59,978 nt of DNA, taken from Eubacteriales bacterium. GTDB taxonomy: Bacteria > Bacillota > Clostridia > Oscillospirales > CAG-382. The DNA lies in the NCBI GenBank assembly GCA_045636665.1, contig JAZTXY010000014.1, positions 1 to 59,978 of the forward strand, written 5' to 3'. Of this stretch, positions 30,341 to 48,993 are shown in pieces; positions within the stretch are counted from its first letter, which is position 1, and each line of letters starts with the position of its first letter. A program made the position numbers and the translations under genes. The notes beneath the pieces are model-generated. The model saw only the letters and a program-made list of their open reading frames with translations. It did no database searches and was not told the origin of the DNA.

Positions 30341-33300
30341 ATGATTAAAAGAGCGCTTGCTACGGTTTTGATAATTCTTACCGTACTGCCTGCCGTTGTT
30401 TTGGCAGGGAGCGTTCTTTTTGCGCCCTATAACGGCCTTGAAGCGTTTGACGACAGCTGGGAAAACTCGATAAACGCCGCTTTGGGCAACGGAGCCGAAA
30501 CAGGCAAAGCCGTTTCACCTCTCCCCGACGGCGAAAGATATATCGTAAAATTCAAGGACAACGTTTCGTTACTGTCGATTGAAAATGCGCTTGAAGCAAC
30601 CGAATACCGTCAGCTTGCCGAAAGCGAGCAAAGACTGTTTGTGATAAGCGACAGCGAAAGCAAATTCATTAAAGAAAACAGCGATATTATCGAATACCAC
30701 GAAACAGACCTTATGCGTGAGGCTTTGGCGCTTACCAACGACGCGGTAACACTGCCCACCTTTGAAACGACCGGAATTTACGAGGCTTGGGATACCGTAA
30801 AGGCGAGAAACGATATTATCGTCGCGGTATTGGATACCGGTATCGACCGCACTCACGAGGATTTGGTCGATGCAAGCATTCTCCCCGGATATGACGCGGT
30901 AACGAAAACGGCAGGTGTTTACGACGACGCCGTCGGTCACGGCACGGGTGTTATCGGTCTTATCGCCGCAACGGCAGATAACGGAATCGGTATCGCAGGC
31001 GCGGCTCACGGCGTTACGATTTTGCCGATAAAGGTTTCGGCAAGCAGTACGACCATTTATTCATCGGATTTGGTTTCGGCAATACGGTTTGCCGCAAATT
31101 CGGGCGCAAAGGTAATTAATATGTCCGTCGGCGGACTTTCCTATTCCTATGCCGAGCAGGAGGCGGTAAATTATGCCGTTTCAAAGGGATGTATTCTCGT
31201 TTCCGCTTCGGGCAACGGCGGTTTGCTTCCCTATGCCGACAAAAAAAGCTATCCCGCATCCTACGAGGGCGTTATTTCGGTCGCATCCTGCGATGCCTTC
31301 GGTGAAAGAAGCTCTTTTTCGCAGTATAACGATATGGTCGACATCGCCGCGCCCGGCGAAGCGGTGATGATGCCGATTGTCGAAAACGGCGTTTCGGCTT
31401 ACCGCACCGATTCGGGCACGAGCTTTTCCTGCGCGATAGTAAGCGCAATTGCGGCGCTTGCGGTTTCCGCCTGCGACGAGGATGTGCGCTTTGACAGCGA
31501 TGAATTTTTGTCGCTTATAATGAATACCTGCAACAAAATACGCACCGACGAGCTCGGCTTTGGCATTATCAACGCAAAGCCCATTATCGAATCGGCAAAT
31601 TTGCCGATAATCACCGGCGCGATTGACGGAAACGTTTATAACGAAAGCATTAAGGTCGGCTTTAACCGCGGAAGCGCATTGCTTGACGGCGAAGAATTTG
31701 AAGACGGCGATGCCATTATCGCAAACGGCGAGCACGAGCTTAAAATAACCGACGGCGATTACGAAAAAATTATTCGCTTCCGTTTGGAATACGAGCCGTT
31801 TTCCTATGAATTCAAGGAATTTTCGGACTATGCCTATTTTGTGTTCAACCGCGGAACCGCGTTGCTCGACGGCTTCCCTTATTCGTCGGGTGAAAAGATA
31901 ACCGCATCGGGCAGACACGAATTCGTTATTACCGACGGCACCGAAACGTTCACAAAAATTATTGATATTCAATACGCTCTGCCCTCGGTATACGGAGTTG
32001 AAGACGGCGGAATTTATAATAACCCAATAGAAATTTGCGTTGTCGGCGACGGCAAAGCAATGCTTGACGGCAAGCGCTTTTACAACAAGACCTGCGTTGC
32101 CGAAAGCGGTGTACATACACTTTCGGTCGAAAGCGGAACCGGCACTGTCAAAAAGGAATATACCTTTGAAATCAATTTCCCGTTTGCGGAATTTACCCAA
32201 ACCGATTATGCCGAATCGACTGCGGCAATCGACGAAGAAAACGGTTATGCCTGCATTTACGGCGATTCGCTTGTGGGTGTGAGGATTTACGGCTTAAACG
32301 ACCTTTCGCAATATCTGCATTTTCTGCCGATAGGCCGTGTTTATGCCCACAAATTCACCGAAACCGAGCTGGTTTTGGCAGGTGACGAGGGCATTACCGT
32401 AATTTCACGCGCGAATGCATTGAATCCCGAATCAGCGGTTATCAACAACGTTTATTTCGAAGGCATCGAGCTTTATACGTTTGCCGACGAAACGGTTTAC
32501 TGCTTCGGCGATAAAAACATTTATCTTTTGGACTCTGCTTTTTCCGAGCTTACACATATTGCAAACGTCGGATTTTCTTGCACAAACGCAATTTATTCCG
32601 ACGGATTGATTTGTCTTACGTCCGACCAAAACGACCGTACAGTTTATGTTTTCAACACCGAAAACAATTCGCTTTCAAGTTTTTCGATTGATTTTTCGCT
32701 TGAGCTTCAGCCGATTTATTTCGAGCACGGATACCTTGCAATCGGCAACCGTTTGATCAACGTGCTTCGCAAAGCCGTCGTGCTTGAATTTTGCTCCTAC
32801 AAGGCGATTGATATTGAAGACGGGCTTCTGTTTTGCGAAAATGCAATAATCGATATTGCTTCGGGCAGAGAATTGGGAAGATTCCCCTTCCCCGTTTCGG
32901 ATATTGTTTTGGGGGCTGACGGCATTTATCTTTTCGGTGTCGAGCCGATAGCGGCGAAAATTTCAAGTCTTGCCGAGGACGTTTTTGCCTACGGTGCGGC
33001 AAAGCCGACCGACCTTGCGTTTTCACAGCCCGAAAATTCAAACGAATTCAGACAAACCCTGTTTATCGACGGAAGCTTCAATGCGCTTTCGACAGTGGCG
33101 GGTCAAACCGACGTTTTCGCGATATTCAAGGATAAATACGCAATATATTCCCTTGCGCTTGACGGACTTGCCGAAAAAGCTCCCGTAAAATTGCGCTTTG
33201 AACCCGAAAAGCTCTTCCTTTCGGGCGGTTATCTTGCCGTTTCCTTTAAAAACGCACCTTTCGTTTATGTCGCTCATGAAACCGACGTTTCATCGGGCAA

Positions 33301-35773
33301 TTATATCGAGCTTCCCTCGAAATGCGATTCGGCTTGTACCGTAAACGGAACGCTTTACGCAGTTTCGGGAGGCAGATTGCTTTACTGCAACGCCGACGGA
33401 AGCGAAAAAGCCGCGCTGTCGGTACGCGCACGCGCCGTTGCGACCGACGGAATGCGCGTCTACGTTTTAAACGGCACCACGCTTTCGGCGTATGACGAAA
33501 ATTTTGTTCGATTGACGGAAATAAGAACCAACGACGGCGAGCTTTTCGTTGCAAACGGCGTTATTGTCGGAAACGTGCTTTACGACAACACGCTCTTTGC
33601 CGAATACGCAACGGTTGCCAATCCGATCGATTACGTTTATAATAACGTTTATTTCTCGGGCAACGGCATTTACGATATTCTCACCTCACGCTTTATCGGA
33701 AAATTCGGTGTAGAATCGACCGATGCGGCTTGCGCGGCTCAAAACGGAAGCATTATTGCCTTTGGCGGCAGTATTGTAACGGTTTCAAAATATGCCGATT
33801 CGCACGATATTTCGGTTCCTCCCGTTATCGAAGGCATTGCCCACGGCGAAATTTACAACGGCAGCGCAACCGTTACCTTTACGGAGGGTGTCGGTCATAT
33901 CGACGGCAAGGTTATTGAATCGGGAACGGTTATAACCCAAGCAGGCGCACATAACTTTGTGCTTACGCTTCCCTTCGGTCAAAGCGTTTCTTTCGGATTT
34001 ACAATCGAAGCGAATATCGAAAGCATTGAATTTCTCGTTCCCAACCGCACTATGTCGGTCGGTGAAACAATAACCCTGCGCGTGCGCTTCCTTCCCGACG
34101 GCGCAAGCTCGGTTCCCGTTACCTACTCCTGCGATTCCGACGGATTGAGCTTTGGAGATATGGGCGAGGTCACTGCGCTTCGCACGGGTGTTTACACCGT
34201 AACGGCTACCGTTGTTACCGATTACAAAACCTTCAAGGCGGAAAACACCATAACGGTGCGCGACGACCTTATAACCTTTAAGCCCGACAGCGGAATGATC
34301 GTCGACCGCGACAATCTTATCCTTTACGGCATCAAGCCCGGAAGCACGGCAAAGGACGTTTTGGCACTTCTTTCGGTAAAAAAAGAAGCGCGCTTCCTCA
34401 ACACAAGCAAGCGCGAGGTCAAGGGCGTCGTTGCAACGGGACATACGTTGGCGCTTTACGGCGACGACGGTGAAATTACCGACCGCCTTACTGTTGTAAT
34501 CCGCGGCGATACCGACGGCGACGGATTTATTACCGCATACGATATGCTCACGCTTGAGCGTATGCTTAAAAACTATCAATACGATTCCGTTTATCTGCAA
34601 GCAGGCGATATAAACGGCAACGGCGTGCTTGCCGATAACGATTTCCGCGAGTTGCGAAACGTTGTTCTCCGCCGTACCGAGGATGTGCTCGGCACACCCG
34701 ACAAAAACCTTTTCGGCTCGATCGACGTGCAAACGCTTTCGCACATCGCAAGCGGTGAAATTATCGACGTGGTGCTTTGTCTTAACGGCTCAAAGCACGC
34801 GCGAAGCATCGACGGCGTTATTGAATACAGCGACGGCCTTGAATTTATCGAAAGCGTCACAACGGGTTGGGACGTGAATTGCCGTGATATCGGCGATAAC
34901 AAGCTTGGACTTTTTGCCTACGACCACAAAGGCGAAGAATGCAACAAAGCCTTCTTCGTGATAATTTCACTTCGATTCCGAGTAACCGCAAAAGCGGGCG
35001 AAACGCTTAAGCTTTCCGCAAAAACGCTTACGGCATCGTTTGAAAGCGGCGCAAAGCAAATCACGTTCAACGACAACGAGTTTAAGGTGAGCGAAAGCAA
35101 GGTCGGCGATTTCAGAATCGACGTTCTCAACGCAAAATCCTTTGAATTTGACCCCGAGGTTTACGAATACGACGGAATAACAGTTCCCTACAACGCGGCT
35201 GTTGCCGATATTGCGATAACGCGCGATGAAAACAGCGTTATTTCGGTTTCGGGCTCGTCGATACCCAACGACGGCAAGGCAACGATAACCGTAAGCCGTG
35301 TTACCGAAAGCGGAGAAACCAAGGTTTATACCCTTAACGTACGCCGCGAAAGCGAACCGCGCTTCGATTCGAACTGTATGCTCGATTCGCTTGAAATAGA
35401 GGGCTTTAAGCTTATCCCGACGTTCGACCCCAAGGTTACCGAATACAGCATTTCGGTGCCCTTCGGAACCGAAAAGATAAGCATTCACTGTAAGGCGCAA
35501 AGCCCGACCGCGCAGGTGATTATCGGCGATACAACGCTTTATTCCGAAACAAACACGATAACAGTGACCGTTATCTCGCCCGACGGCGAATCGCTCGTCT
35601 ATACGATAAACGCAACGGTATTGCCAAAGGTCGAGGAATCGTCCGAGCCGCTTATCGAACCGCAGGCTCAGCAAAACGATATACCCTGGGGCATTATTGC
35701 CCTATCGGCAATGGCAGGTATTTCGGTTTTGGTTGCAATTTGGCTTATCGCAAGACGCAAAAAGGTTAAATAA
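30341..35773 (+). CDS. 1810-aa cell-surface S8 (subtilisin-like) serine peptidase with repeat modules, Big_2, dockerin-like, cohesin-like and cadherin-like domains and a C-terminal TM anchor
   Basis: Signal peptide at aa 1-23. Catalytic triad D165 (LDTGID, 30833), H200 (HGTGV, 30938) and S361 (SGTSFS, 31421). Dockerin-like loops GDTDGDGFITAYD / GDINGNGVLADND at 34505-34672. Cadherin-like DSLEIEGFKLIPTFDPKVTEYSI. TM helix WGIIALSAMAGISVLVAIWLIA followed by RRKK. Confidence 0.9.
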   Translation: MIKRALATVLIILTVLPAVVLAGSVLFAPYNGLEAFDDSWENSINAALGNGAETGKAVSPLPDGERYIVKFKDNVSLLSIENALEATEYRQLAESEQRLFVISDSESKFIKENSDIIEYHETDLMREALALTNDAVTLPTFETTGIYEAWDTVKARNDIIVAVLDTGIDRTHEDLVDASILPGYDAVTKTAGVYDDAVGHGTGVIGLIAATADNGIGIAGAAHGVTILPIKVSASSTTIYSSDLVSAIRFAANSGAKVINMSVGGLSYSYAEQEAVNYAVSKGCILVSASGNGGLLPYADKKSYPASYEGVISVASCDAFGERSSFSQYNDMVDIAAPGEAVMMPIVENGVSAYRTDSGTSFSCAIVSAIAALAVSACDEDVRFDSDEFLSLIMNTCNKIRTDELGFGIINAKPIIESANLPIITGAIDGNVYNESIKVGFNRGSALLDGEEFEDGDAIIANGEHELKITDGDYEKIIRFRLEYEPFSYEFKEFSDYAYFVFNRGTALLDGFPYSSGEKITASGRHEFVITDGTETFTKIIDIQYALPSVYGVEDGGIYNNPIEICVVGDGKAMLDGKRFYNKTCVAESGVHTLSVESGTGTVKKEYTFEINFPFAEFTQTDYAESTAAIDEENGYACIYGDSLVGVRIYGLNDLSQYLHFLPIGRVYAHKFTETELVLAGDEGITVISRANALNPESAVINNVYFEGIELYTFADETVYCFGDKNIYLLDSAFSELTHIANVGFSCTNAIYSDGLICLTSDQNDRTVYVFNTENNSLSSFSIDFSLELQPIYFEHGYLAIGNRLINVLRKAVVLEFCSYKAIDIEDGLLFCENAIIDIASGRELGRFPFPVSDIVLGADGIYLFGVEPIAAKISSLAEDVFAYGAAKPTDLAFSQPENSNEFRQTLFIDGSFNALSTVAGQTDVFAIFKDKYAIYSLALDGLAEKAPVKLRFEPEKLFLSGGYLAVSFKNAPFVYVAHETDVSSGNYIELPSKCDSACTVNGTLYAVSGGRLLYCNADGSEKAALSVRARAVATDGMRVYVLNGTTLSAYDENFVRLTEIRTNDGELFVANGVIVGNVLYDNTLFAEYATVANPIDYVYNNVYFSGNGIYDILTSRFIGKFGVESTDAACAAQNGSIIAFGGSIVTVSKYADSHDISVPPVIEGIAHGEIYNGSATVTFTEGVGHIDGKVIESGTVITQAGAHNFVLTLPFGQSVSFGFTIEANIESIEFLVPNRTMSVGETITLRVRFLPDGASSVPVTYSCDSDGLSFGDMGEVTALRTGVYTVTATVVTDYKTFKAENTITVRDDLITFKPDSGMIVDRDNLILYGIKPGSTAKDVLALLSVKKEARFLNTSKREVKGVVATGHTLALYGDDGEITDRLTVVIRGDTDGDGFITAYDMLTLERMLKNYQYDSVYLQAGDINGNGVLADNDFRELRNVVLRRTEDVLGTPDKNLFGSIDVQTLSHIASGEIIDVVLCLNGSKHARSIDGVIEYSDGLEFIESVTTGWDVNCRDIGDNKLGLFAYDHKGEECNKAFFVIISLRFRVTAKAGETLKLSAKTLTASFESGAKQITFNDNEFKVSESKVGDFRIDVLNAKSFEFDPEVYEYDGITVPYNAAVADIAITRDENSVISVSGSSIPNDGKATITVSRVTESGETKVYTLNVRRESEPRFDSNCMLDSLEIEGFKLIPTFDPKVTEYSISVPFGTEKISIHCKAQSPTAQVIIGDTTLYSETNTITVTVISPDGESLVYTINATVLPKVEESSEPLIEPQAQQNDIPWGIIALSAMAGISVLVAIWLIARRKKVK

Positions 35774-41019: not shown

Positions 41020-42462
41020 ATGTATGACGTAACTATCATCGGCGGCGGCGTTTGCGGTGCTGCCGTAGCGATGTATCTTTCTAAATATGACCTTAAGTGC
41101 TGTCTTCTCGAAAAGGAGAACGATATTGCAATGAGCACAACCCGTGCAAACAGCGGTATCGTGCACGCGGGCTATGACCCCGAACCCGACACACTTATGG
41201 CGCGTCTTAACGTACGCGGCTGTGAGCTTATCGAGGAAATTTGCGAAAAGCTCAACATCCCTTACAAAAAATGCGGCTCGATGGTTATTTCCTTCGACTC
41301 CAAGGATGAAGCGCATCTTCAAAAGCTTTACGAGCGCGGCATCGCAAACGGTGTCCGCGGTATGGAGCTTATTAACAAGGAAGCACTTCTTGAACGCGAG
41401 CCCAACCTTTCAAACGACGTTACCGGCGCGTTGTACGCATCCTCGGCGGCTATCGTCAACCCTTGGCGTCTTTGCTTGGGTATGGCTGAAACCGCGGCTA
41501 AAAACGGCGTTGAATTTTATCTTGACAGCGAGGTTACCGCAATCGAAAAGGTCAACGGCGCATTCAAGGTGACCGCAGGAGACAAGGTTTACGAAACCCG
41601 ATTCATCATCAACGCCGCAGGACTTTTTGCCGACAGAATCGCTGCCTTGGCGGGTGCTCAGGATTTTGAAATTTTCGCGTCCAAGGGACAGTATTTCCTT
41701 CTTGACAAAACCTCTTACGGACTTGTAAACACAGTCGTTTTCCAATGCCCCACCGAAAAGGGCAAGGGCGTGCTTATTTCCCCCTCCGCAGACGGAAATA
41801 TCATTGTCGGCCCCAATGCCGAATCGAATAACGAGCGTGATGACGTTTCCACCACCCGTGAGGGCTTGGGTTTCGTTGCGCAGGAAGCGGCAAAAACAAG
41901 CAAGCTTGTTGACTACCGTGAAAATATCCGTTCCTTCTCGGGCTTGCGCGCAAACTCCGATAAAAACGACTTTATCATCGGCGAATCGGCACTTTGCCGT
42001 CACTTTATAAACGTTGCGGGTATTAAATCCCCCGGTCTTTCGTCTTCGCCCGCTATCGGTGAATACGTTATCGAAATTCTTGAGGATTGCGGACTTATTA
42101 TGACCGAAAAGGCAGAATGGTCCTATCCCGATGCTCATATCTGCTTTGCAGAGCTCAGTAACGAGGAAAAGGCGGAAATCTGCAAGCGCAACCCCAAATA
42201 CGGCAACATTATCTGCCGTTGCAACGTGGTTACCGAGGGTGAAATCCTCGATGCGCTCGATACCTCTTACATCAAGCCCCGCACACTCGACGGCATCAAG
42301 CGCCGTACGGGCACTGGCATGGGCAGATGTCAAGGCGGATTTTGCGGTGTCAGAGTTCACGAAATACTTTGCAAATATTACGGTCTTGATGCCAAGGAGG
42401 TCCTTTGGGACAGAAACGGCTCTAATATAGTAGCAGGAAAGGTCGGTGAAAATAATGACTAA
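41020..42462 (+). CDS. FAD-dependent oxidoreductase, GlpA-like glycerol-3-phosphate dehydrogenase family with BFD-like [2Fe-2S] C-terminal domain
   Basis: YDVTIIGGGVCGAAVA dinucleotide fold and C-terminal Cys motif CRCNVVTEGE..GTGMGRCQGGFC. Confidence 0.88.
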   Translation: MYDVTIIGGGVCGAAVAMYLSKYDLKCCLLEKENDIAMSTTRANSGIVHAGYDPEPDTLMARLNVRGCELIEEICEKLNIPYKKCGSMVISFDSKDEAHLQKLYERGIANGVRGMELINKEALLEREPNLSNDVTGALYASSAAIVNPWRLCLGMAETAAKNGVEFYLDSEVTAIEKVNGAFKVTAGDKVYETRFIINAAGLFADRIAALAGAQDFEIFASKGQYFLLDKTSYGLVNTVVFQCPTEKGKGVLISPSADGNIIVGPNAESNNERDDVSTTREGLGFVAQEAAKTSKLVDYRENIRSFSGLRANSDKNDFIIGESALCRHFINVAGIKSPGLSSSPAIGEYVIEILEDCGLIMTEKAEWSYPDAHICFAELSNEEKAEICKRNPKYGNIICRCNVVTEGEILDALDTSYIKPRTLDGIKRRTGTGMGRCQGGFCGVRVHEILCKYYGLDAKEVLWDRNGSNIVAGKVGENND

Positions 42463-43723
42463 GCACGATATAGTTATTATCGGCGCAGGCCCTGCAGGTC
42501 TTGCTGCCGCAGTTGCCGCTTATGAAGCGGGCGTTACCGATATTTTGTTGCTCGAGCGTGACTGTGAAGCAGGCGGTATTCTTAACCAATGTATCCACAA
42601 CGGCTTTGGCCTTCACCGCTTCGGCGAGGAGCTTAGCGGCCCCGAATATGCAGGCAAATATATCGATATGCTCAAGAACACAAGTGTCAAGCTTCAGCTC
42701 GGCACGACCGTTCTTAACATCGAAAACAAAATCGTTTCGGCGGTTTCGGAAGCAAACGGCTTTGAACAGTTCGAGGCAAAGGCAATAATCCTTGCAATGG
42801 GCTGCAGAGAGCGTAACCGCGGTCCTATCTCGGTTCCCGGCGACAGAGGCAAGGGCGTGTTCACCGCAGGCGCGGCACAGCGCTACCTCAATATCGAGGG
42901 TTACCTTGTCGGCAAGAAGATTGTTATTCTCGGCAGTGGCGATATCGGACTTATTATGGCAAGAAGAATGACGCTTGAAGGCGCAAAGGTTCTTGCGGTT
43001 TCCGAAATTATGCCCTTCACCAACGGTCTTTCGAGAAACGTCGCGCAATGTCTTGAGGATTTCGACATTCCGCTTTATCTCTCGCACACCGTAACCAAGG
43101 TTATCGGCAAAAACTCGCTTGAGGGCATTGAAATCTCCCAAGTTGATGAAAATATGAAGCCCATCCCCGGCACCGAAAAATATTTCGAATGCGATACTCT
43201 CCTCCTGTCTGTTGGTCTTGTTCCCGAAAACGAGCTTACCCGTCAGGCAGGCATCGAGCTTGACGCGCGTACAAGAGGCGCTTCGGTAGGCGAGGATATG
43301 CAAACCTCCGAGGAAGGCGTTTTCGCTTGCGGTAACGTGCTTCACGTACACGACCTTGTCGACTACGTTTCGGCAGAAAGCGAACGCGCGGGCAAGAGCG
43401 CGGCTAAATACGTGCTCGGCACCGCAGTGACCGAAAGCGACGCGCTTAACGTAAACGTCGGACTTAACGTCGGATATACCGTACCTCAAAGAATCAACCG
43501 CGAAAACGTCGAAAAGGGCGTTGACATCTTCTTCCGCGTACGCAAGAAGATTCGTGTCGGAGAAATCCGTGTTGAATCCAACGGCGAAAAGATCGCATCC
43601 TTCAAGCGCGAATTTTTGGCGCCTGCCGAAATGGAAAAGATCACGGTTCCCAAGGTTCTGCTTGACAAGGCAAACGGCAGTATTACGGTATCTGCGATCG
43701 AAATTGAGGAGGAAGCGAAATGA
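42455..43723 (+). CDS. NAD(P)/FAD-dependent pyridine nucleotide-disulfide-type oxidoreductase
   Basis: Two Rossmann motifs, IVIIGAGPAGLAAA and IVILGSGDIGL. ATG overlaps the upstream stop region by 8 nt. Confidence 0.88.
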   Translation: MTKHDIVIIGAGPAGLAAAVAAYEAGVTDILLLERDCEAGGILNQCIHNGFGLHRFGEELSGPEYAGKYIDMLKNTSVKLQLGTTVLNIENKIVSAVSEANGFEQFEAKAIILAMGCRERNRGPISVPGDRGKGVFTAGAAQRYLNIEGYLVGKKIVILGSGDIGLIMARRMTLEGAKVLAVSEIMPFTNGLSRNVAQCLEDFDIPLYLSHTVTKVIGKNSLEGIEISQVDENMKPIPGTEKYFECDTLLLSVGLVPENELTRQAGIELDARTRGASVGEDMQTSEEGVFACGNVLHVHDLVDYVSAESERAGKSAAKYVLGTAVTESDALNVNVGLNVGYTVPQRINRENVEKGVDIFFRVRKKIRVGEIRVESNGEKIASFKREFLAPAEMEKITVPKVLLDKANGSITVSAIEIEEEAK

Positions 43724-44061
43724 AAGAAATGATCTGCATCGTCTGTCCGCGCGGATGCCATTTGACGATAGACGAAAACACCTTGGAGGCTCAGGGTAAC
43801 ACCTGTCCCAGAGGCGAAGAATACGCAAAGAACGAAATCGTTTCCCCGATGCGCACCATTACCGGCTCGGTCGGTATTTCGGGCGGTATTCACTCCCGTT
43901 TGGCGGTACGCACCAACCGCGCAGTCCCCAAAAGCAAGATGTTTGAAATTATGGCTGTGCTTCACGCTTGTAAGGTTCAATCCCCCATCAAGCGCGGCGA
44001 CGTTATTATTGAAAACGTTTGCGGTACGGGCGCGAACGTTATCGCATCGCGCGATATGTAA
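43720..44061 (+). CDS. DUF1667 domain-containing protein
   Basis: CIVCPRGC..GNTCPRGEEY Cys pairs and 113-aa size. ATGA overlap with the upstream gene. This is the usual third member of the trio. Confidence 0.85.
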   Translation: MKEMICIVCPRGCHLTIDENTLEAQGNTCPRGEEYAKNEIVSPMRTITGSVGISGGIHSRLAVRTNRAVPKSKMFEIMAVLHACKVQSPIKRGDVIIENVCGTGANVIASRDM

Positions 44062-44066
44062 ATTAT

Positions 44067-44100
44067 AAAAAGCGAGAACTTCGGTTTTCGCTTTTTTGTT
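44067..44100 (+). terminator. Rho-independent terminator
   Basis: AAAAGCGAGAAC-ttcg-GTTTTCGCTTTT followed by TTGTTTTG. Confidence 0.7.
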
Positions 44101-44113
44101 TTGTAAAATTCTG

Positions 44114-44142
44114 TTGATATGTGGCGAATTGTGTGGTATAAT
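44114..44142 (+). promoter_or_regulatory. Extended -10 promoter TTGATA-17-TGgTATAAT of the cotH operon
   Basis: Hexamers at 44114-44119 and 44137-44142. Confidence 0.5.
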
Positions 44143-44231
44143 TTATTCTGTATAATAATATGTAGTATTTTGGAATAATATTTTGTGACAAAATGCGTAT
44201 GTATACGTCTTTTGTAACGGGGTGTATAGAA

Positions 44232-47200
44232 ATGTCAAACAGAACAATTTCGACAAGAACGAAAAAAGAAATAATGATTGCAATATTGCTCACCGCGTGC
44301 TTATTGCTTGGCTTCGTCGTGATGCTCGTCGTCGAGGATAACGTCGGCACGCCGATTTTTTATGACGGCGAAATGAAAAACATAAACGTTGTTATTAACG
44401 AAATATGCTCGACAAACAAATCGATAATCGCAACCGATAACGGCGAATATCCCGATTATATCGAGCTTTACAATAAAGGCGAAACCTTTAATCTTGCCGA
44501 TTTCGGCTTGGCAAACGATACGCAAAACAGCAAGGCTTACAGCTTTGGGGATTACATTTTTGAATCGGGCAGTTATCTTATCGTTTATCTTGACGGTTCA
44601 AACGTGCCCTTCCGCCTTAATTCAAACGGCGGTGAATACGTTGCGCTCGTTTCGTGGGACGGTACGGTTATCGACAGCACGACAACGGTCAAAACACCGG
44701 GCGACAACGTAATGCTTCGTACCAACGAGGGCTTTGAGGTTTCCGACCTTGCATCGCCCGGTTATCCCAACACCGAGGAGGGTGTCCGTTTGTTCCGCGC
44801 AGGCGTTATGGACGGAAGTATGTCCTTGGCGATAAACGAAATCTTTACCGCAAACGATTCGGTATTGCCCGATTTCGAGGGTGATTATTGCGATATTATC
44901 GAAATCAAAAACATTTCCTCGGCAATCGTTTCCACAAAGGGATATTATATTTCCGACACGCAAACCGACAGAATGCGTTGTGCATTGCCCGAAAAGGAGC
45001 TTGCCCCCGGCGAAATAATGCTCGTTTTTGCATCGGGCAAGGAAAAAATTACCGAAAGCGGCGAATTTCACGCCGATTTCAAGATTTCCGTCGATGAAGA
45101 AATTTTCATTTCACACGGCTCGAAATATACAAAGCAGCCTGCAACGAAATGCGAAAGCAATAAATCGATTTCTCGCGTTAACGGCGAAAACGGAATCGAA
45201 TATACCGAAATGTACGCAACACCCGGATATGAAAACAACGAAAACGGACGTGAAGCGCTTGATAATTCGCGCATCAATTCCGAATATCCGTTGGTAATCA
45301 GCGAGCTTTTGCTCTCGCAGGACGGCGTACCTTACGGCGGAAAGCTTCGTGACGTTATCGAAATTTGCAATATTTCCTCGCAAACGGTTTCGACAAGCGG
45401 ATGGTTTGTGAGCGATTCGCAAGACGACCCTTATAAATACGACCTGCCCGACCGCGACCTTGCGCCGAATGAATGTATGCTTATTTACGCAGAAAACGGC
45501 AGTGGCGAAAACGTTTGCGGCTTTGCGCTTTCCTCGGGCGAGGCGGTTTATTTGACAGGCCCCGACTTTAAGCGAAGCGAATACGTTTCCTGCGCGGCGG
45601 CAGGCAGAGGATTTTCGCGCAGCTATACCGTTGAAAACGGCGAAGCGGTTTACGTTGATGCCGAAATAAGCATCGGCTTTGCAAACGGCGAAAACGGTAT
45701 TAAGGCTTATGCAACGGCGGTTCGACCTGCCGATATCGAAATCAGCGAGGTCGTATCCTCCAACACGAAATTCCTTGCAGGACCTTATAAGACCTATCAC
45801 GATTTTGTCGAGCTTTATAACCGCACCGACAAAGAAATCGACCTTACGGGCTATTACCTTTCCGACGATACCGAGCAGGTAAGAAAGGGCAGTCTTGACG
45901 GCGTAAAGATTCCTGCAAACGGTTACGTTTGCATTATCCTCTCGACCGACGGAATCAACACACCCAAGGGTCATCACGTTGTCAGCTTCGGCATCAACGC
46001 ATCGGGCGAAACGCTCGTGCTTGCAAAGGGCGATACGGTGTTGGACGTTGCGGTCATCCCCTCGCTCGGTCAAAACACTTCGTTTGGCAGAGCAAACGGC
46101 GAAGACGGATTTTCGATCCTTGCATCACCCACACCCAACGATATAAATACCTCACGCGCTACCGAAACCACCTCGACTCCCTCGTCTTCCCTTCCGCAGG
46201 GCGTTTATTCCGAAGGAATCACGGTTGAGCTTCAAGGCGACGGCGCTATTTATTACACGCTCGACTGCTCCGAGCCGACTGCCGATTCGGTCAGATACAC
46301 CTCGCCGATAAAAATCAATTCGACGACGGTTATCCGTTGCATCGCTATTGAAGACGGCAAAAAGCCGAGCAAATTCAGCAACTTTACCTTTATCGTCAAC
46401 GAAAAGGACACGCTTGAAGCGGTTTCGATAGTTACCACACCGGAAAATCTTTGGGACTATTACAGCGGAATTTACGAAACAGGCCCGAAGGCAAGCTCGG
46501 TTTTCCCTTACGAGGGCGCAAACTATTACAACCGTTGGGAGCGCGAAGCGACCGTTTCCTTTTTCGATAAAAACGGAAGCGGATTTGACGAATACTGCGG
46601 CATTCGCATTTTCGGCGGTCTTTCACGCGCGTTGCCCAAAAAATCCTTTGCGCTTTTCTTCCGTCAGGCATACGGAAACGGCGAGCTTGATTATCAGCTT
46701 TTCGAGGATGAGGAGCTTTCGCAATACGAAGGCTTTGTTTTGCGAAACGGCGGTCAGGATTTTAAATACTCGACAATGAAGGACGCGATGGTCACCTCGA
46801 TGGCGCACGATCTTCTCGGCATCGACGTTCAAAACTGCCGTCCCGTTGTTTTATACCTCAACGGCGAATATTGGGGACTTTATTTCATCCGTGAAAAGCT
46901 TAACGAGCATTACGTTGCAGGTCATTACAACGTATCGGCAAGCGAAGCAACCGTTACCGTTGCAAACGGTAAAACAAGCCCCGAATATACCGAGCTTGTC
47001 AACTTTGCGCACTCTCACGACCTTAGAAATCAAGAGCATTACGACTATATGAAGTCGCAGGTGGATATCGAAAACTATATCGATTATATAGTCGCCGAAA
47101 TGATAATTTGCAACACCGACAACGGCAACATCCGATTTTTCACCTATGAGGGAGGAAAATGGCGTTGGATAATGTACGACGTCGACCAATCCTTCCGTAC

Positions 47201-47579
47201 CGCCTCGTATAACACCGTTTCGGAGCATTTGAACCCCGCAGGCACGGGCAGTGCGAATATGTTTTCGACAAGACTTATCAACGCTCTGCTTAAAAACCCC
47301 GAATTCAAAGAAAAATTCCTTCGTGAAACGGCATATCAGTTAAATAACGTATGGACCGTTGAAAACGTCAATGCCTACGTCGATACCTTCCGCGATATGA
47401 TTATCAACGATATCGGCAAGGATTGTATCCGTTGGGAAAGAAAATACGAAACCTGGGAAACCTCGGTTGACAATATGCGCTCCTTTATAGCCGCGCGTGA
47501 AAAATACGTCGTTACGCATATTCAGTCGTATTTCAATCTTTCCGATGATTATATGCTCGAACTCGGTTTTGAAATATAA
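44232..47579 (+). CDS. cotH: CotH kinase-family protein with N-terminal TM anchor, four lamin-tail-like (LTD) modules and a chitobiase/hexosaminidase-C-like module
   Basis: TM segment IMIAILLTACLLLGFVVMLVV. LTD starts VINEICS..DYIELYN, INEIFT..DIIEIKN, ISELLL..DVIEICN and ISEVVS..DFVELYN. CotH core FGGLSRALPKKSF..LRNGGQD..YLNGEYWGLYFIREK. ATG 44232 follows GGGGTG. Confidence 0.88.
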   Translation: MSNRTISTRTKKEIMIAILLTACLLLGFVVMLVVEDNVGTPIFYDGEMKNINVVINEICSTNKSIIATDNGEYPDYIELYNKGETFNLADFGLANDTQNSKAYSFGDYIFESGSYLIVYLDGSNVPFRLNSNGGEYVALVSWDGTVIDSTTTVKTPGDNVMLRTNEGFEVSDLASPGYPNTEEGVRLFRAGVMDGSMSLAINEIFTANDSVLPDFEGDYCDIIEIKNISSAIVSTKGYYISDTQTDRMRCALPEKELAPGEIMLVFASGKEKITESGEFHADFKISVDEEIFISHGSKYTKQPATKCESNKSISRVNGENGIEYTEMYATPGYENNENGREALDNSRINSEYPLVISELLLSQDGVPYGGKLRDVIEICNISSQTVSTSGWFVSDSQDDPYKYDLPDRDLAPNECMLIYAENGSGENVCGFALSSGEAVYLTGPDFKRSEYVSCAAAGRGFSRSYTVENGEAVYVDAEISIGFANGENGIKAYATAVRPADIEISEVVSSNTKFLAGPYKTYHDFVELYNRTDKEIDLTGYYLSDDTEQVRKGSLDGVKIPANGYVCIILSTDGINTPKGHHVVSFGINASGETLVLAKGDTVLDVAVIPSLGQNTSFGRANGEDGFSILASPTPNDINTSRATETTSTPSSSLPQGVYSEGITVELQGDGAIYYTLDCSEPTADSVRYTSPIKINSTTVIRCIAIEDGKKPSKFSNFTFIVNEKDTLEAVSIVTTPENLWDYYSGIYETGPKASSVFPYEGANYYNRWEREATVSFFDKNGSGFDEYCGIRIFGGLSRALPKKSFALFFRQAYGNGELDYQLFEDEELSQYEGFVLRNGGQDFKYSTMKDAMVTSMAHDLLGIDVQNCRPVVLYLNGEYWGLYFIREKLNEHYVAGHYNVSASEATVTVANGKTSPEYTELVNFAHSHDLRNQEHYDYMKSQVDIENYIDYIVAEMIICNTDNGNIRFFTYEGGKWRWIMYDVDQSFRTASYNTVSEHLNPAGTGSANMFSTRLINALLKNPEFKEKFLRETAYQLNNVWTVENVNAYVDTFRDMIINDIGKDCIRWERKYETWETSVDNMRSFIAAREKYVVTHIQSYFNLSDDYMLELGFEI

Positions 47580-47596
47580 CGGGGAGGAAGATAAGA

Positions 47597-48265
47597 ATGG
47601 CTGAACGCAGAGAAGAAAAATATCTTATCAACTACTCGGAATATTCGATTATTTCAAACCGCATAAAGGCGCTTTTACAGCCCGATAAAAACGGCAAGGA
47701 CGGAAAATATTCGATATGCTCGATGTATTTCGACGATGCCTTTGACACGGCGCTTGCCGAAAAGGAAGACGGCAATGCGGTTCACGTTAAGTTCCGTATC
47801 CGCACCTATGACGGAAACGGCGATTTTATCCGTCTTGAACGAAAGACCAAGCGCGGCATCGTTACCGAAAAGCATTCGGCAAGGATAACAAAGGAAGAGC
47901 TTGAAAAAATTCTTTCGGGCGCACCGATTGATGAAGGAAGCGATTGCTTCGGGCTTGTTGCGGAAATGCGCGCAAAGGCATTTAAGCCTGCGGTTTCGGT
48001 CAGATACGACCGCGAGGCATATTATATGCCGTCACTCGGAGTGCGAGTTACCTTTGATATCAACGTCGATTCGCTTCCGCCCGATACCGACACGCTTTTC
48101 GGAAACACAAAACGCGCCTTACCCGCAGTTGACCGCGGACAGATTATTATGGAAATTAAATATTCCGAACGCTGTCCTTCGCTTATCCGCAAGGCGTGTG
48201 CGACAAACAGCGCACAGCTTTCGGTTTCAAAATACGCACTTTGCAGAAATGCACCGATGATATAA
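47597..48265 (+). CDS. VTC-domain (polyphosphate-polymerase-like, CYTH tunnel fold) protein
   Basis: REEKYLI, SMYFDD, KFRIRTY, LERKTK and EIKY strand motifs typical of the VTC domain. Starts 17 nt after cotH. Confidence 0.85.
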   Translation: MAERREEKYLINYSEYSIISNRIKALLQPDKNGKDGKYSICSMYFDDAFDTALAEKEDGNAVHVKFRIRTYDGNGDFIRLERKTKRGIVTEKHSARITKEELEKILSGAPIDEGSDCFGLVAEMRAKAFKPAVSVRYDREAYYMPSLGVRVTFDINVDSLPPDTDTLFGNTKRALPAVDRGQIIMEIKYSERCPSLIRKACATNSAQLSVSKYALCRNAPMI

Positions 48266-48284
48266 CATTTAAAGGAGAAACAAA

Positions 48285-48950
48285 ATGAGTATTTTAGACG
48301 CAATAAAAAAGAGTGTTTTGGAGGGCTTTTCTTCCGAAATAACCATTGCCGACATTATTATTTCGCTTATCGTAGCGTTTCTTTCCGGCCTTTTCATTCT
48401 GCTTATCTACCGCCTCACCCTTCGCGGCGTTTCGAGAAACAGAACGTTTGAGGTTACCCTTCTTCTCGTTACCCCCATTTCGGCAATGATAGTTCTTACC
48501 ATTACCTCAAACCTCGCGCTCTCGCTCGGTATGGTCGGTGCTCTTTCGATAATCCGCTTCCGTACCGCAATCAAGGATGCAAGCGACACAGCATTTATGT
48601 TCTGGTCGGTTGCGGCAGGTATCACCGCAGGCGCGCATTTCTACAAGATTACGATAATCGGCTGTCTTTTCATCGGTCTTGCGGCTTTCGCAGTAATCAA
48701 GCTCACCTCGACCGGCTCGCGACCCTATCTTCTCGTTGTACGCGCAAACAGCGACAAGGCGATCGATTACACAGCGCGTCTTCTTAACGAGAACAACATA
48801 AAGAACCGTCTTTCGTCGCTTGTTGACAACGGCGATTACAGCGAGGTCATTTATGAAATCGCACTTCGCGGCAACCACCAAAAGCTTACGGGTGCGCTCA
48901 AAAACCTACCCGACGTTATAAGCGTTTCGCTTGTTGACTGCAGAAATTAA
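48285..48950 (+). CDS. DUF4956 domain-containing membrane protein
   Basis: Four TM helices and the motif GALSIIRFRTAIKDASDTAFMFW. Starts 19 nt after the VTC gene. Confidence 0.85.
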   Translation: MSILDAIKKSVLEGFSSEITIADIIISLIVAFLSGLFILLIYRLTLRGVSRNRTFEVTLLLVTPISAMIVLTITSNLALSLGMVGALSIIRFRTAIKDASDTAFMFWSVAAGITAGAHFYKITIIGCLFIGLAAFAVIKLTSTGSRPYLLVVRANSDKAIDYTARLLNENNIKNRLSSLVDNGDYSEVIYEIALRGNHQKLTGALKNLPDVISVSLVDCRN

Positions 48951-48964
48951 GAAAGAAATTAAGA

Positions 48965-48988
48965 AAGAGGAGCCGTTTGGCTCCTCTT
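48965..48988. terminator. Bidirectional terminator
   Basis: AAGAGGAGCC-gttt-GGCTCCTCTT, a perfect 10-bp stem between convergent genes. Confidence 0.7.
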
Positions 48989-48993
48989 TATCA

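Follow-up and report, generated by a model that had tools for sequence, protein, structure and literature searches.

Bacterial polyphosphate (polyP) is attributed to PPK1 and PPK2. The eukaryotic VTC complex (Vtc4/Vtc3 or Vtc2/Vtc1; PDB 3G3Q, 7YTJ, 8I6V) is a polyP synthase-translocase whose catalytic tunnel domain is an obligatory partner of a membrane component; it carries SPX and fused three-transmembrane (TM) Vtc1-type (DUF202) domains, and its product enters the vacuole. The available part of a cryo-electron microscopy preprint on the complex reports that the isolated central domain of Vtc4 polymerises polyP by itself (bioRxiv 10.1101/2023.01.27.525886). The subject of this study is a three-gene operon that encodes a protein with the same catalytic tunnel domain, together with a CotH-family protein and a DUF4956 membrane protein. 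It lies in a stretch of 59,978 nucleotides (nt) from an Eubacteriales bacterium (contig JAZTXY010000014.1, assembly GCA_045636665.1), hereafter called the window, and was singled out in a preliminary description made from the sequence alone. The source assembly has 1.8 Mb in 139 contigs and is 80% complete.

Genes of the same three families have been described beside exopolysaccharide genes. The accessible text of Whitfield et al. (2020; PMC7112168) describes Gram-positive pel operons with contiguous accessory genes: cotH, one for a poly-phosphate polymerase, and those for DUF4956 and DUF4832. The available parts of two sources place the pel-contiguous trio in streptococci, clostridia and bifidobacteria (PMC7112168; 10.1101/2024.04.20.589940). 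In Streptococcus intermedius the set (SIR_1592-1594) comprises a CotH that is exported, a VTC-like protein of the cytoplasm in which catalytic residues are present, and an MgtC-like protein with TM and ACT parts; its authors, in the excerpted preprint, did not find the trio other than in pel operons (10.1101/2024.04.20.589940). At locus NELoc-2 of Clostridium perfringens, VTC-domain genes lie beside CotH and genes for membrane proteins that carry a tubulin/FtsZ annotation, with a chitin-synthase-like gene adjoining (PMC2879425). Our literature search found no paper assigning a function to the trio. To that extent the preliminary description was right to call its function undefined, but the trio itself was already in print as a pel accessory set. 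We conclude that the gene set is known in print without a function, and that the copy in the window is a self-contained, pel-independent example of it.

The window's cassette differs from the pel accessory sets in several respects. Those sets are contiguous with pelDEADAFG, whereas the cassette is free-standing, with unrelated flanks and no pel genes in the window; its gene order is CotH-VTC-DUF4956, and its CotH protein is about twice as long and carries four lamin-tail domain (LTD) modules. Our preferred reading, to which we give a probability of about 0.45, is that the operon is a bacterial counterpart of the eukaryotic VTC polyP synthase-translocase, built with different membrane parts and combined with an extracytoplasmic user of the product. 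The three genes are as follows:

44232 to 47579, + strand: gene 1, membrane-anchored CotH-family protein, 1115 amino acids (open reading frame, Shine-Dalgarno position, homologue lengths, Pfam)
47597 to 48265, + strand: gene 2, soluble Vtc4-type triphosphate-tunnel (VTC) protein, 222 amino acids (Pfam, profile, model)
48285 to 48950, + strand: gene 3, DUF4956 membrane protein, 221 amino acids (Pfam, model)

A predicted polyphosphate polymerase

The product of gene 2 matched Pfam VTC (PF09359) over residues 4-215 with an E-value of 1.9e-28 and 100 bits against a cut-off of 23. It has no hydrophobic segment, in agreement with the earlier assignment of a soluble protein. Yeast Vtc4 was matched at E 5.6e-19 by a profile built from 34 proteins that are 20-76% identical to this one. 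Invariant in all 34 sequences were R4, E6, K8, D30, Y44, D46, K65, R67, R69, Y71, E81, K83, K85, K92, Y137, R139, R150, D154, E186, K188, S211, K212 and Y213. Residues were mapped to Vtc4 by counting by hand on the printed alignment, with positions numbered from the full-length chain 8i6v_E. The resulting pairs (window's protein/yeast Vtc4) were K8/K200, R67/R264, R69/R266, K83/K281, Y137/Y359 and R139/R361, and, from a second HMMER stretch that is weak alone but collinear, E186/E426, S211/S457 and K212/K458.

These pairs can be read against the available part of the Vtc4 preprint, in which E426 chelates Mn2+ and K200, R264, R266, K281, Y359, R361, S457 and K458 hold the triphosphate, mutants of the latter making less polyP; K458 is also the one position that differs in the inactive Vtc2 and Vtc3, which have Ile or Leu (10.1101/2023.01.27.525886). 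All nine Mn2+ and triphosphate ligands were present in the window's protein and invariant in the 34 bacterial sequences, including the K458 equivalent, K212. By profile alignment, then, the basic tunnel residues of Vtc4 are kept in 47597-48265, a point that the preliminary description had proposed to check. The bacterial proteins differ from Vtc4 at two positions, having Glu6 for T198 and Lys for H283.

An AlphaFold2 model of the protein (pLDDT 92.9, pTM 0.88) gave the same picture, a closed beta-barrel tunnel fold nearest to that of Vtc4. Its best Foldseek matches were Vtc4 crystal structures (3g3r), with E 2.9e-13 and TM-scores of 0.76-0.79; other triphosphate tunnel enzymes followed at E 4e-8 or worse, with TM-scores of 0.44-0.59. 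No SPX domain was found by Pfam in any of the three proteins, and they are likewise without the Vtc1-type domains of the eukaryotic complex. The assignment of the 222-residue protein as a cytoplasmic Vtc4-type tunnel enzyme and predicted polyP polymerase is well supported by these comparisons. The first step of the mechanism that we propose is equally well supported: the VTC protein would polymerise phosphate from ATP in the cytoplasm in a Mn2+-dependent reaction.

We also considered whether the protein might be some other tunnel enzyme (a triphosphatase, a cyclase, or a hydrolase of ATP or polyP, for example) whose product or activity signals to DUF4956 or energises it. The superfamily does include triphosphatases and class IV adenylate cyclases, which appeared lower in the Foldseek list, and the bacterial Glu6, where Vtc4 has Thr198, recalls what we take to be the acidic first-strand motif of hydrolytic tunnel enzymes. 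Against this stand the retention of all nine Vtc4 ligands, among them the lysine that separates active Vtc4 from inactive Vtc2 and Vtc3, and the lead of the Vtc4 structures by five orders of magnitude in E-value and about 0.2 in TM-score. We consider this explanation very unlikely.

The rest of the genome and genus was examined for other polyP enzymes. Searches of the 80%-complete assembly returned no PPK1, PPK2, Ppx-GppA or DUF202 (PF02656). In a set of 19 genomes of the genus, five of them 96-98% complete, VTC was present in 17, PPK1 and Ppx-GppA in none, and PPK2 in one, as a weak match (E 1.6e-5) in a 7%-contaminated assembly. Because the genus has no PPK1 and no convincing PPK2, the VTC protein is, by sequence, its only recognisable polyP synthase. 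Ppx-GppA was also absent from all 31 relatives searched, including relatives without VTC, so that its absence is lineage-wide. Many genomes of the genus have two or three VTC genes, which fall into two classes by Pfam score (about 1e-40, and about 1e-28 to 1e-32); the window's assembly shows only the lower-scoring type, possibly through incompleteness.

The DUF4956 membrane partner

Like the catalytic domain of the eukaryotic complex, the bacterial VTC protein is tied to a membrane component. In 79 loci gathered with the VTC profile, DUF4956 adjoined VTC every time; CotH was present in 73 at the first pass and in one more (L074) later, and three of the remaining five were cut by contig ends. 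We then counted the families in 401 genomes drawn evenly from the phylum; since these genomes are related, the counts are descriptive and not a test. VTC and DUF4956 were each found in 68 genomes and shared 67 of these, the exceptions being one weak partial VTC match and one weak DUF4956 match (E 9e-4). DUF4956 lay within 2 kb of VTC on the same strand for 76 of 81 VTC matches, and the other five were mostly at contig ends or partial. Of the 62 genomes with CotH, 55 also had VTC, and in 46 CotH was within 5 kb of VTC. The co-conservation of the three families, for which the preliminary description had proposed a test, is thus real, and closest for the pair. Because 13 of the 68 VTC genomes had no CotH match, CotH is dispensable for the core VTC-DUF4956 pair. 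Seven genomes had CotH without VTC; in four of these the frames were about 360-370 amino acids, the size of the spore-coat form.

One genome (G394) has the pair as a single protein of 489 amino acids (L104:1661-3130, - strand), of which DUF4956 occupies residues 35-139 and VTC residues 254-476. A gene for a CWB2 cell-wall-binding protein precedes this fusion, and a stand-alone LTD protein of 210 amino acids follows it (L104:1044-1676, - strand), so that LTD modules accompany VTC and DUF4956 even without CotH. A search for longer fused homologues (at least 505 amino acids) returned only one fungal SPX-DUF202-VTC protein; the 489-residue fusion lies below that range. From these results we conclude that the core is the VTC-DUF4956 pair and that CotH and LTD are frequent additions.

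Outside the phylum, 14 named control genomes were searched. VTC and DUF4956 both matched only in Bacteroides thetaiotaomicron, Corynebacterium glutamicum and Methanosarcina acetivorans, and CotH matched in these three and in Bacillus subtilis; among the controls DUF4956 reaches Bacteroidota, Actinomycetota and Archaea. On a plasmid of the diderm Hymenobacter volaticus (L108:9010-11093, + strand), a DUF4956 gene stands immediately before a TolC-family outer-membrane gene, which is followed by a gene for a protein sorted by the type IX secretion system. Two hypothetical genes and a TMEM260-like O-mannosyltransferase gene precede that DUF4956 gene.

The product of gene 3 matched Pfam DUF4956 (PF16316) with E 1.5e-12 and 48 bits against a cut-off of 30.6. 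Clustered at 50% identity, the family has 8,982 clusters that reach an E-value of 1e-3 or better and 6,411 that reach 1e-10 or better; the best 150 representatives listed are mostly about 220-230 amino acids long, and a look-up in the ESM Atlas returned DUF4956 clusters only. The preliminary description had given the protein four TM helices. The AlphaFold2 model, made from 36 sequences (pLDDT 81), has five instead (residues 21-45, 53-73, 77-92, 99-116 and 120-141), after a short N-terminal helix, and ends in an ACT-like domain (146-218) with the order beta-alpha-beta-beta-alpha-beta. This C-terminal domain matched ACT domains with VIA Z-scores of 10-11.

The closest described architecture is that of MgtC/SapB, in which an ACT-like domain in the cytoplasm likewise follows a membrane domain of five helices. 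The C-terminal domain of MgtC (2lqj) was the top Foldseek match of the model, at E 1.7e-3, and MgtC C-terminal domains gave VIA Z-scores of 9.9 and 9.4. By sequence, NCBIfam MgtC/SapB matched over residues 75-215 at E 8.2e-7 with 28.8 bits against a cut-off of 214, and Pfam MgtC was not reported for the window's protein and reached E 0.026-0.96 in three relatives. DUF4956 is thus MgtC-like in architecture and not a member of MgtC/SapB by score: its scores lie far below the family cut-offs, it has its own signature (N76, G85, S88 and R91-F92-R93), and it has its own obligate partner. Its invariant residues are I38, Y42, N76, G85, S88, R91, F92, R93 and G112. In the model the basic loops and R91-F92-R93 are on the same side as the C-terminal domain. 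That side is taken to be cytoplasmic; the natural fusion joins the C-terminal domain to the ATP-using VTC domain.

In the second step that we propose, supported by linkage, the one fusion and topology, the VTC protein would work at the cytoplasmic face of this MgtC-like five-helix protein. In the third step, by analogy with the pore of yeast Vtc1/3/4, DUF4956, probably as an oligomer, would pass the growing chain across the membrane. The membrane partner would then be a five-helix MgtC-like protein with an ACT-like domain where the eukaryotic complex has a Vtc1-type pore, the membrane concerned would be the cytoplasmic one, and the product would leave the cell and not enter a vacuole.

The same observations can be read in another way, with the trio as a membrane-tethered but purely cytoplasmic polyP synthase, DUF4956 as an MgtC-like anchor or regulator with a metabolite-sensing ACT domain, and the exported CotH as a separate, merely co-regulated protein. 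The resemblance to MgtC in sequence (E 8.2e-7) and in structure (2lqj, E 1.7e-3 and Z 9.9) agrees with this. ACT domains are usually ligand sensors, which fits a regulatory role. A housekeeping polyP synthase would be useful to a genus without PPK1 and PPK2, and the 13 VTC genomes without a CotH match show the pair by itself. In the accessible part of their preprint, the S. intermedius authors favour cytoplasmic polyP (10.1101/2024.04.20.589940). The pairing itself points away from it, since a soluble polymerase needs no membrane partner, yet VTC and DUF4956 occurred together in 67 of the 68 VTC genomes and once as a fusion. The exported protein bears on the same question and is described below.

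The CotH-family protein and proposed export of polyphosphate

The product of gene 1 has the following parts, given with residues in the 1128-residue numbering that starts at the earliest ATG:

44271 to 44333, + strand: N-terminal signal-anchor helix, residues 27-47 (hydrophobic segment, basic before and acidic after)
44382 to 44687, + strand: LTD 1, residues 64-165 (Pfam, E 5.3e-9)
44823 to 45059, + strand: LTD 2, residues 211-289 (weak, E 5.4e-5; below the Pfam cut-off if scanned by itself)
45288 to 45554, + strand: LTD 3, residues 366-454 (Pfam, E 1.1e-7)
45726 to 46040, + strand: LTD 4, residues 512-616 (Pfam, E 8.2e-13)
46194 to 46373, + strand: CHB_HEX_C_1 / Fn3_assoc beta-sandwich module, residues 668-727 (Pfam, E 2.2e-18)
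46602 to 47510, + strand: CotH kinase-fold domain, residues 804-1106 (Pfam, E 7.5e-48)

This arrangement bears out the earlier account of a membrane-anchored CotH protein with four LTD modules, of which LTD 2 is weak, and one hexosaminidase-C-like module. The protein has a single hydrophobic segment, near its N-terminus. Because basic residues precede this segment and acidic residues follow it, a positive-inside pattern, everything beyond the anchor is predicted to lie outside the membrane, which agrees with the extracytoplasmic placement given before. The same feature is general among the relatives: 78 of 84 VTC-linked CotH open reading frames (ORFs) of at least 450 amino acids had an N-terminal hydrophobic 17-mer, some with lipobox-like sequences, and the six without it were truncated or of doubtful start. 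Two interpretations of this protein were tried and rejected. Charge-based binding of polyP by the LTD modules was discarded because the modules are acidic, and a sporulation role was discarded on topology, the protein being membrane-anchored and predicted extracellular, unlike the spore-coat form of about 365 amino acids; sporulation-specific expression, as implied by the CotH name, is likewise not supported.

The CotH domain exceeded the Pfam cut-off (PF08757) with 164 bits against 23.8, and a profile of 20 CotH domains matched Bacillus cereus CotH (5jd9) at E 7.5e-51. Profiles were needed for such comparisons, as single-sequence phmmer searches of PDB sequences with the CotH and VTC proteins returned only chance antibody matches or none. 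Among the 20 domains only G895, D976 and D996 were invariant. In the alignment D976 and D996 fall on the 5jd9 motifs NFDG and WDYD, and they correspond to D228 and D251 of B. subtilis CotH, the offset between the B. subtilis and B. cereus proteins being inferred from the equal spacing of 23 residues. According to the available part of one report, mutation of D228 or D251 gives a catalytically inactive protein (PMC7821199). Compared with the Bacillus spore-coat protein (PDB 5JD9/5JDA), the window's CotH thus has the same kinase-like fold family and both essential aspartates, and differs in the motif after the catalytic Asp. The spore-coat protein has about 360 amino acids and is found in the mother cell with ATP; the window's protein has 1115, is anchored and predicted extracytoplasmic, and carries LTD and CHB_HEX_C modules.

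A second CotH gene is present in the same assembly (contig 50, 1862-2872, - strand; locus L083:1072-2727, - strand). It encodes 551 amino acids with a C-terminal type I dockerin, and because of the dockerin the protein is presumably extracellular, displayed on a cellulosome-like scaffold; a metallo-beta-lactamase-fold gene follows it. The window itself holds a gene for another large dockerin-bearing surface protein (30341-35773, + strand), of 1810 amino acids, with a subtilase S8 domain and a cadherin-like beta-sandwich.

In the fourth step that we propose, the CotH domain, held outside the cell on a stalk of four LTD modules, would use or process the exported polyP. PolyP rather than ATP is suggested as its substrate because there is no ATP pool outside the membrane, and the polymer could, for example, serve as phosphoryl donor for the phosphorylation of a wall protein or glycan. 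A channel function for DUF4956, like the link between polyP and an exported kinase, is suggested by gene linkage, the one natural fusion and topology.

Four observations argue for export, and the same four argue against a purely cytoplasmic synthase. First, as noted above, the membrane partner is near-obligate although the isolated Vtc4 domain needs none. Second, the CotH partner, within 5 kb of VTC in 46 of 68 genomes, is in nearly every case exported, to a place that lacks ATP; co-regulation alone hardly explains this. Third, one diderm DUF4956 gene adjoins a TolC gene. Fourth, no Ppx-GppA-type exopolyphosphatase to draw on a cytoplasmic store was found in any of the 31 relatives, although this absence extends to relatives without VTC. 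In view of these points we consider a cytoplasmic synthase with an unconnected CotH unlikely. The boldest form of the export scheme, in which VTC and DUF4956 are a previously uncharacterised machine that makes polyP at the inner face of the cytoplasmic membrane and threads it outside, and exported CotH proteins are polyP-dependent kinases or transferases, is more tentative, and we regard it as somewhat doubtful.

Several points weigh against a synthase-translocase with an external user of polyP. The only genetic test found, in S. intermedius, showed hardly any phenotype in the conditions applied: as far as the accessible text of the preprint goes, single deletions retain Pel and aggregation, with a small drop in the DUF4956 mutant; its authors propose that polyP stays in the cytoplasm, and MgtC is regarded there as a regulator and not a transporter (10.1101/2024.04.20.589940). 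DUF4956 has no match in sequence or fold to the Vtc1-type pore, in fold searches that were dominated by the ACT-like domain and effectively left the TM part uncovered. DUF4956 also occurs without VTC on two diderm plasmids (Hymenobacter, and pSymA of Sinorhizobium meliloti), as judged from the plasmid records and not the chromosomes, which is a mild caution against obligate pairing outside the phylum. The 13 VTC genomes without a CotH match count against a required external user. In the CotH domain, the canonical HNY after the catalytic Asp is replaced by GNI[RK]F in the window's clade, and because of this change the donor site of this CotH may differ. Finally, the LTD modules are acidic (pI 4.05-4.81), as is the whole ectodomain (pI 4.5).

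Operon boundaries, glycan contexts and significance

The signals that delimit the cassette were located by consensus scan:

44114 to 44142, + strand: promoter-like site, TTGATA, 17-nt spacer and TG-extended TATAAT (11 of 12 matches)
48964 to 48989, + strand: intrinsic-terminator-like hairpin, 11 bp (6 GC), with a T-rich tail

The promoter had the joint top score among 12 promoter-like sites in a 7-kb scan, in which shuffled sequences gave a mean of 9.2 sites. A second terminator, found in the same way at 44067-44096, ends the preceding operon 18 nt ahead of the cassette promoter. Between the signals lie + strand ORFs at 44193-47579, 47597-48265 and 48285-48950, with intergenic gaps of 17 and 19 nt. 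These coordinates confirm that a promoter and a terminator bracket exactly three genes with the gaps first reported. The length of 1115 amino acids originally given for gene 1 also fits: its earliest ATG (44193, 1128 amino acids) has no Shine-Dalgarno sequence, whereas the ATG at 44232 has GGGGTG 8 nt upstream, and the homologues in the VTC-profile loci are mostly of 1111-1117 amino acids. GGAGG precedes the start of gene 2, and AGGAG that of gene 3.

The flanking genes are unrelated to the cassette. Upstream (41020-44061, + strand) are three genes, DAO/BFD-like, Pyr_redox_2 and DUF1667, a set that we take to resemble the anaerobic glycerol-3-phosphate-dehydrogenase-like operons of Firmicutes; the downstream neighbour, a gene for an AI-2E transporter, lies on the opposite strand. 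Among public records, close relatives are metagenome-assembled genomes of the gut Clostridia/Oscillospiraceae type, many from ruminants. No RNA dataset was listed as containing the operon, and the DNA datasets containing it all had small word shares.

These surroundings bear on a further explanation, that the trio serves exopolysaccharide systems such as Pel as an accessory for glycan modification, in which CotH would be a kinase of sugars or matrix proteins and VTC and DUF4956 would supply phosphate or an anionic polymer; the window's copy would then be a remnant detached from its glycan genes. The published contiguity with pel operons in streptococci, clostridia and bifidobacteria, cited above from partial sources, speaks for it. 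PelG lay within about 6 kb of VTC in 7 of the 68 VTC genomes. In RefSeq annotation the trio is plasmid-borne in Planococcus (L110) and Pseudobutyrivibrio (L111), amid glycosyltransferase, acyltransferase and HEAT-repeat genes, and the C. perfringens NELoc-2 set adjoins its chitin-synthase-like gene. The gene company of the two plasmid trios is the same as that of NELoc-2. However, the window's operon is insulated by terminators, between a glycerol-3-phosphate-dehydrogenase-like operon and the AI-2E transporter gene with no glycosyltransferase, and a search for PelG in the 80%-complete assembly found none. Strong PelG was present in 14 of the 401 phylum genomes, nine of them VTC genomes; it was not found in 59 of the 68 VTC genomes, nor in at least 37 of the 46 where CotH neighbours VTC. 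Because most genomes with CotH beside VTC thus lack strong PelG, our counts disagree with the claim that the trio is confined to pel operons. A glycan accessory also overlaps the synthase-translocase reading rather than excluding it. As a separate explanation we find it quite unlikely.

Under the reading of the operon as a synthase-translocase with an external user, the cassette bears on the origin and export of polyP that is not made by PPK enzymes in bacteria. Extracellular polyP without PPK1 or PPK2 has been described in the Bacillus cereus group, where the available part of a 2026 preprint calls its source unknown and reports no VTC4 homologue (PMC13484657). If VTC and DUF4956 do export the polymer, they would give bacteria without PPK1 and PPK2 a route to envelope or extracellular polyP. 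If the exported CotH uses that polymer, it would be a kinase working without ATP, and polyP would be a new energy supply for chemistry outside the cytoplasm; this would bear on the streptococcal pel biofilm loci and on C. perfringens NELoc-2, which contain the same genes. As a three-gene unit with its own promoter and terminator, the cassette is convenient to clone and assay.

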